Notes under the pieces: generated by a model
The model's input: only the letters and a program-made list of their open reading frames with translations
What the model was told of the DNA's origin: nothing
Databases searched by the model: none
In this document: one piece after another, positions 6,875-44,474 of the stretch
Numbering within the stretch: the first letter of the stretch is position 1
Layout of the letters: every line of letters starts with the position of its first letter
Assembly: GCF_013167455.1 (NCBI RefSeq)
Contig: NZ_CP038328.1
Direction: 5' to 3' (one strand)
Length of the DNA: 64,000 nucleotides
Origin: Escherichia coli O157:H7
GTDB lineage: Bacteria > Pseudomonadota > Gammaproteobacteria > Enterobacterales > Enterobacteriaceae
Translations under genes and position numbers: made by a program

Positions 6875-8375
<1,501 letters not shown>

Positions 8376-8390
8376 TGTTGACTCCGAATG

Positions 8391-8406
8391 CTGGTTATCT
8401 ATCCAG
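8391..8406 (-). promoter_or_regulatory. putative non-canonical LexA box upstream of cho
   Basis: CTGGTTATCTATCCAG is a CTG-N10-CAG palindrome 16-31 bp upstream of the cho start; cho belongs to the SOS regulon. Confidence 0.4.
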
Positions 8407-8466
8407 TGTAACAGCCGGGAAGCGATTAAAAAAGAGGCGGGTCGATGACAAAGGTTACACCGTCTG

Positions 8467-8575
8467 ACGTGCTACGCCTGTCAGGCCTATTCGACTCCTG
8501 CAATGTATTGAATTTGCATAGTTTTGTAGGTCGAATAAGGCGTTCACGCCGCATCCGGCGTGAACAAATTACTCT
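8467..8575. repeat. REP/BIME-type palindromic unit(s) between cho and nadE
   Basis: GC-rich imperfect palindromes of the REP type (gcctgtcaggcctattcgac ... gtaggtcgaataaggcgttcacgccgcatccggcgtgaac). Confidence 0.6.
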
Positions 8576-8604
8576 TTTTTGCACAATCCAATAGGTGCAA
8601 ATTA

Positions 8605-9432
8605 TTACTTTTTCCAGAAATCATCGAAAACGGTAATTGGCGGACGGCGTTTATGTTCGGTTTTCAGATACCAGTTCTCTATTGTTCTGGCGACCTGTTG
8701 AGGTACGTTTTTCCCTTCCAGATAGTCGTCGATATTGTCATAGGTCACGCCGAGTGCCACTTCATCTGGCAGAGAAGGGCGATCATCTTCCAGATCGGCC
8801 GTTGGCGCTTTCTTATAAAGGTGTTCCGGGCAACCTAATGCTGCCAGTAACTGTTTACCCTGACGTTTGTTGAGACGATACAGTGGATTAATGTCCGTAC
8901 CGCCGTCACCATATTTAGTGAAGAATCCGGTAATGGCTTCTGCTGCATGATCGGTGCCCACCACGACACCGCTGGTCATACCCGCAATGCTATATTGTGC
9001 TTTCATCCGCTCACGCGCTTTTTCATTGCCACGGACAAAATCGCTCAGTTCAATGCATGCTTCCCGCAATGCCTGCTCGCTAGCCAATACCGCGCCCTTG
9101 ATATTAACGGTTAATACGCGATCCGGTTGAATAAAGGCAATGGCATCCTGGCAATCTTGTTCGTCGGCCTGAACACCATAGGGCAGGCGTACGGCAATAA
9201 ATTGCAGTGATTCGTTGCCGGTTTCCTGGCGCAGCTCATTAATCGCCATCTGGCACAGCTTACCGGCAAGCGTGGAGTCCTGACCGCCGCTGATCCCGAG
9301 CACCAGTGATTTAATGAACGGATAAGTTTGCAGGTAGCTTTTCAGAAAATCGACACTACGACGAATTTCCTCTTCAGCATTAATCTGCGGTTTTGCGCCC
9401 AGCGCCTTTATTATTTGTTGTTGCAATGTCAT
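8605..9432 (-). CDS. nadE: NH3-dependent NAD+ synthetase
   Basis: 275-aa ORF; N-type ATP-pyrophosphatase motif SGGQDS in translation. Confidence 0.92.
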
Positions 9433-9633
9433 TGAACCCCTCCAGACAGAAAAGACAAAACTTCCTTAAAGCTAACCCGTTGCTACTGAAACGACAAGCG
9501 ACAGCGGGCTGAATGGTGGTTAAAACGTCATACAGGAATCCTCTGAAAGCGGAGCCGTTTCGTTCATGGGCTTGAAAAAGCGCCCAATGTATTCCAGGCT
9601 TATCTAACACGCTGATAAACAATAGGACGGAAT

Positions 9634-44244: not shown

Positions 44245-44474
44245 TTTGTTCTTCCCGTGATGCAGACATAATTCTATGAAAGCATAAATTAAAAACGCAC
44301 AGAAGCGTAGAACGTTATGTCTGGTTTATAAAATGAACCTTCAATTTTATTTTTTATGAAAACAGCATTTCATTTTTATGGTTTCGTTTATACCGATGGT
44401 TTATGTGGAAATTGTCGAAAAGAGCAGATTTGCGCAACGCTGGGATCAGTCTTAACAAGTAAAAAAATATATTT

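Follow-up and report, generated by a model that had tools for sequence, protein, structure and literature searches.

The analyses presented here make it nearly certain that the palindrome in front of cho, in the 64-kb stretch of Escherichia coli O157:H7 DNA analysed as a whole (the window), serves the cho promoter as its LexA operator (SOS box), a conclusion based on published identity, matrix score, conservation and published LexA-dependent, damage-inducible expression. From the sequence we also infer the exact cho promoter and start site, and hence that LexA probably acts there by occlusion rather than as a roadblock. The operator is already known and this exact sequence is in the literature; the site has been described since 2000–2002, will not surprise a specialist and has little import beyond annotation. 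It does explain why synthesis of Cho, the back-up nuclease for 3' incision in nucleotide excision repair, awaits the inactivation of LexA.

METHODS

LexA sites were scored by the Berg–von Hippel heterology index (HI), using a matrix derived from the 17 other LexA boxes of Table 4 in PMC3009722, with cho left out; the functional limit for an E. coli-type SOS box was taken as an HI of about 13–15. Conservation was followed in a scan for the Cho protein with one genome per species, which gave 80 loci, all from Enterobacteriaceae and with 70–98% identity, of which 79 had upstream DNA.

RESULTS

The cho gene and its surroundings

Excinuclease Cho is a homologue of the N-terminal region of UvrC. Its gene, cho (ydjQ), occupies 7488..8375 on the minus strand and encodes 295 aa from a GTG start at 8375, as judged from the open reading frame, RefSeq and NCBIfam: the frame matches the NCBIfam Cho equivalog NF007833 with 579.6 bits (cutoff 367) over residues 1–287, and RefSeq annotates it, at 100% DNA identity, as excinuclease Cho. 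The RefSeq genes in the surrounding 2.1 kb (7400–9500) are ves, cho and nadE, and this segment matches E. coli O157:H7 strain PV15-279 at 100% identity and recurs with 97–99% identity in essentially all of 5,426 complete E. coli genomes. nadE (8605..9432) lies on the same strand as cho, 230 bp upstream, and ves converges on the cho 3' end. The 3' ends of cho and ves overlap by 41 bp (window 7488..7528; in K-12, cho 1823515..1824402 and ves 1824362..1824937), so that the two transcripts are necessarily antisense to each other at their ends. A Shine–Dalgarno sequence, GGAG (8382..8385, minus strand), can be read from the sequence 6 nt before the GTG and is present in 78/79 orthologous loci.

The nadE–cho spacer carries REP-type elements at 8483..8525 (minus) and 8529..8565 (plus). 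One of them matches the Rfam sRNA family ES036 (CssrF) with 42.9 bits against a gathering score of 37.6, and the other gives a sub-threshold match to naRNA4 (CssrE) over a perfect hairpin, GTTCACGCCGGATGCGGCGTGAAC (8565..8542). The spacer (185 nt) folds far better than its shuffles (z = -3.89). Most other genera lack these REP-type elements and have a simple hairpin with a T-run terminator directly before the cho promoter.

The palindrome is the published SOS box of cho

The palindrome CTGGTTATCTATCCAG lies at 8391..8406, which is 16–31 bp upstream of the cho GTG start (8375, minus strand), exactly where the earlier note had placed it. Its core, CTGG-N8-CCAG, sits within a 20-bp SOS box, CACTGGATAGATAACCAGCA (8389..8408, minus strand), which we assign to cho from published identity, HI and conservation; the core of this box reads CTGGATAGATAACCAG and conforms to CTG-N10-CAG. 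The 25 nt printed for the cho box in Table 4 of PMC3009722, TACACTGGATAGATAACCAGCATTC, among the LexA motifs upstream of UV-induced genes, to which cho belongs, are letter for letter those of the minus strand here, and the proposal that a LexA operator stands in front of cho is borne out. A 2019 SOS review places cho (ydjQ) under ‘known SOS box’, the box of K-12 cho (ydjQ, b1741) goes back to Fernandez de Henestrosa 2000 and Courcelle 2001, as cited in PMC6590174 and PMC11228462, and LexA is stated to regulate uvrA, uvrB, cho and uvrD (PMC3820734).

Weight-matrix scoring, which the earlier note had named as a check, makes the cho 20-mer (8408..8389, minus strand; leave-one-out HI 7.93) the best LexA match on both strands of the 64-kb window (about 128,000 positions), and in Markov-simulated windows of the same first-order composition sites as good as this are expected by chance at 0.01 per window. 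With the same matrix its neighbours are ruvA (7.36), ftsK (8.13), polB (8.39), dinB (8.67) and dinG (9.35). The window holds four copies of the bare pattern CTGG-N8-CCAG, for which shuffles give an expectation of 0.66, and since the other three, with GC-rich spacers and an HI of 17–23, are not LexA sites, the bare pattern by itself is no proof.

Several further matches were considered and set aside. An overlapping register, CTATCCAGTGTAACAG (8399..8414), has one mismatch to CTGT-N8-ACAG and was tried as a second box; its HI is 22–27, its CTGT contains the TGT of the extended -10 element described below, and most genera have CTGC there, so that a second box was rejected. The next-best match in the window after the cho and ydjM boxes is TATTTTTTATGAAAACAGCA at 44348..44367 (plus strand; HI 10.76), in the spacer that separates divergent open reading frames of 277 aa and 792 aa, to judge by size apparently ppsR and ppsA. 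This site (HI 10.8) has no left CTG, is not credible and probably matches by chance because it is AT-rich; a site at 22922 (HI 12.2) is likewise not credible.

Half-sites, predicted affinity and induction

Both half-sites do deviate at the fourth base from CTGT/ACAG, as the earlier note had observed in calling the site non-canonical, but its atypicality was overstated: ruvA carries both substitutions, the site belongs to the textbook set of the regulon and, of the 17 other published boxes, two have G at the fourth base on the left and six have C on the right. G or C at this position is thus normal for SOS boxes.

The further description of cho as weakly bound and late-induced does not hold. 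Its HI of 7.5–7.9 is mid-range, the published value being 7.5 (from Courcelle 2001) beside 7.4 for lexA and 7.6 for ruvA (PMC11228462 Table 1), and after ciprofloxacin cho mRNA has already risen by log2 0.92 at 10 min, reaching 1.59 at 75 min (PMC11002266). In that study the onset for cho was the same as for most SOS genes and its amplitude modest, and HI followed the amplitude of SOS induction after ciprofloxacin, not its timing. The step from weak binding to late induction also runs against the classical SOS model, in which tightly bound, low-HI genes such as umuDC (published HI 2.1–2.8) are the last to come on, and weak boxes come early. The cho box is therefore middling, not weak, and a weak box does not imply late induction.

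Expression has been measured under other conditions as well. Expression of cho is 5.1-fold lower in a non-cleavable lexA3 background (PMC11228462); in the same study AZT gave no induction of cho (0.77-fold), although the gene depended on LexA there. Salmonella ydjQ has one box, with an HI of 6.69, and nalidixic acid induces the gene 3.3-fold (PMC8072944).

Conservation of the operator

When the 120 bp ahead of each start codon were scored with the LexA matrix, the top match in all 79 loci that include upstream DNA was a 20-mer beginning 31–36 bp upstream, with an HI of 3.0–9.8; CTG-N10-CAG is present in every one (79/79), and the mean AT content of the spacer is 78%. The fourth bases of the half-sites are less constant, CTGT/ACAG occurring in 28 loci, CTGG/ACAG in 24, CTGG/CCAG in 22 and other combinations in five. 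They vary independently, which fits the site of a dimeric protein. An alignment of 77 of the sequences becomes unalignable beyond about -60, and the spacer of the box and the stretch from the T-tract to the -10 element are variable; the conserved blocks are the CCGCCTCTTTTTT tract, TGnTAYACTG, CAG, GGAG and GTG.

Boxes with ‘perfect’ CTGT/ACAG half-sites and a GC-rich spacer, CACTGTATGCCTGAACAGTA, occur at about -33 in cho loci of Enterobacter, Leclercia and Lelliottia (loci L018, L021, L026, L027, L031 and others). These have the worst HI of the set, 9.77, and the CTGG/ACAG boxes of Klebsiella and Raoultella reach down to 3.5; across genera, the canonicity of the half-sites is thus uncoupled from overall predicted affinity.

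Within E. coli, the cho box is intact in six of seven sampled haplotypes. In isolate 538 (L084:61-134) the left half-site reads CTTG in place of CTGG, the change corresponding to window position 8403, so that the invariant G is lost and the HI goes up to 11.5 from 7.9; this haplotype is rare, with exact matches over its 74 nt in 4/5,426 complete genomes. Such CTTG haplotypes could be natural, partly derepressed cho variants. At window position 8415, which is -17 of the inferred cho promoter, O157:H7 has G on the minus strand, and six other Escherichia sequences sampled have C. This SNP lies upstream of the extended -10 element and outside any recognised element, and the 75-nt upstream stretch is matched at ≥99% by only 357/5,291 E. 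coli genomes.

A putative extended -10 promoter overlapped by the operator

Conservation also points to a putative extended -10 element, TGTTACACT (8405..8413, minus strand), with TG at 8413..8412 and the hexamer TACACT at 8410..8405, which overlaps the first 4 bases of the cho SOS box. TAnACT is present in 79/79 orthologous loci and is preceded by TGn in 73/79, and the sequence further upstream has diverged. Since the TA and the TG lie outside the LexA 20-mer, LexA does not explain their conservation. The geometry of an extended -10 promoter, the sole basis for this placement, would put the transcription start about 7 nt past the hexamer, inside the SOS box (8397..8399, minus strand); a start at about 8398, equivalent to about 1823492 in K-12 MG1655, would make the leader about 23 nt long, with GGAG at 8385..8382 ahead of the GTG.

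A generic sigma-70 scan of 8300–8700, which needs a -35 hexamer, found no promoter, so that it is conservation that must carry the occlusion geometry. The genome-wide start-site table of Kim 2012 has no entry between nadE and ves, an absence that repression and weak expression of the gene might lead one to expect.

The conserved CCGCCTCTTTTTT tract of the 77-sequence alignment (8428..8440, minus strand) lies some 15 nt ahead of the -10 element and is ‘motif 2’ upstream of cho in Table 5 of PMC3009722. In many genera this tract is the 3' arm and T-run of the nadE terminator, and in E. coli, where a terminator scan of the nadE–cho interval gave no match, it fills the -35/UP position of the putative cho promoter.

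DISCUSSION

Alternative explanations

That the palindrome is a chance inverted repeat of no regulatory role might be suggested by the three further bare copies of CTGG-N8-CCAG in the window, none of them a LexA site. The full 20-mer, however, is expected only 0.01 times per window, the box keeps its position in 79/79 genera or species in spite of diverged flanks, and cho expression depends on LexA (PMC11228462); chance is thus extremely improbable, and we regard it as effectively refuted by the conservation and expression data. It is also very improbable, if slightly less so, that the repeat works through a hairpin of RNA or DNA in the cho leader or is bound by some regulator other than LexA. 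Being perfect (4+4) and expected to lie in or close to the 5' UTR, it would suit such a role, yet the segment 8370–8420 has no folding advantage over shuffled sequence (z = -0.70; 47/200 shuffles fold as well), on which ground an RNA hairpin in the cho leader was rejected. Moreover, a hairpin would need coordinated changes of the fourth bases, and in 24/79 orthologues these would form a G–A mismatch, so that no compensatory pattern is seen, and the conserved letters are exactly the CTG and CAG contacted by LexA.

A different matter is how LexA acts at this site. Transcription might begin at an upstream promoter or read through from nadE, with the operator serving as a roadblock at which the elongating polymerase is halted at about +15 to +30. 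Hexamers for such a start are present upstream of cho (TTGTCA-N15-TTTAAT, at about 8449..8423), nadE is co-oriented and only 230 bp away, the interval between the two genes in E. coli contains no canonical terminator that the scan could find, and the start-site table is without a cho entry. Against this, TGnTAYACT is conserved from genus to genus, but the TTGTCA region not beyond Escherichia; sigma-70 is poorly served by a spacer of 15 bp; and the strong REP-type hairpins of the nadE–cho spacer (z = -3.89) should limit read-through. We therefore consider a roadblock quite unlikely and favour occlusion of the promoter by LexA.

Proposed mechanism

In the undamaged cell, a LexA dimer would occupy CTGG-N8-CCAG with one winged-helix domain on each half-site. 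Because the box begins inside the -10 hexamer and covers the predicted start, bound LexA would exclude RNA polymerase. Exclusion of polymerase by LexA at the promoter is the usual SOS arrangement. Upon DNA damage, RecA filaments would promote self-cleavage of LexA and so free the cho operator, allowing synthesis of a cho mRNA with a leader of about 23 nt, GGAG as its ribosome-binding site and a GTG start. In nucleotide excision repair that depends on UvrAB, Cho would then provide an alternative 3' incision. The cleavage of LexA and the biochemistry of Cho are established knowledge.

It is conceivable, though rather unlikely, that selection and not drift keeps the cho operator at intermediate affinity. 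The toggling of the fourth base across genera and the GC-rich spacers that often raise the HI in ‘perfect’ lineages (9.8 in Enterobacter) suggest this reading. If true, the double substitution of Escherichia, Salmonella and Citrobacter would be one of several equivalent settings of a moderate basal Cho level, and the CTTG genomes would then be natural constitutive-cho variants.

Comparison with known operators

The closest known system is E. coli K-12 cho itself, which shares with the window the 25 nt, the gene that follows them and the nadE–cho–ves context, without any difference in the operator; upstream of the extended -10 element, O157:H7 has the one SNP at 8415 (G versus C in the other sampled E. 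coli, minus strand).

The ydjM promoter, 13 kb away, belongs to the same regulon and is likewise LexA-regulated, with boxes just upstream of the start codon; the view that the window holds a second SOS gene, ydjM, is confirmed by two LexA boxes at 21493..21530, which overlap by 2 bp. Box 1, TACTGTACGTATCGACAGTT (21512..21493, minus strand; HI 9.94, second among the sites of the window), has perfect CTGT/ACAG half-sites and a GC-containing spacer, and box 2, CACTGTATAAAAATCCTATA (21530..21511, minus strand; HI 10.0, third), is without the right CAG. The sequence of box 2 is the one printed for b1728 ydjM in PMC4576408, and the published HI of ydjM is 9.0 (PMC11228462). The ydjM reading frame spans 20888..21490, and the NCBIfam alignment makes 21478 its probable true start. 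Unlike ydjM, cho has one box instead of two overlapping ones, and both ydjM boxes score worse than that of cho.

The ruvA box, CGCTGGATATCTATCCAGCA, resembles that of cho, sharing the CTGG...CCAG half-sites, an AT-rich 8-bp spacer and a near-equal HI (published 7.6). It differs in serving the ruvAB operon, in the sequence of its spacer and in its distance to the start codon. Since ruvA carries the same double substitution at the fourth base, this substitution is compatible with control by LexA.
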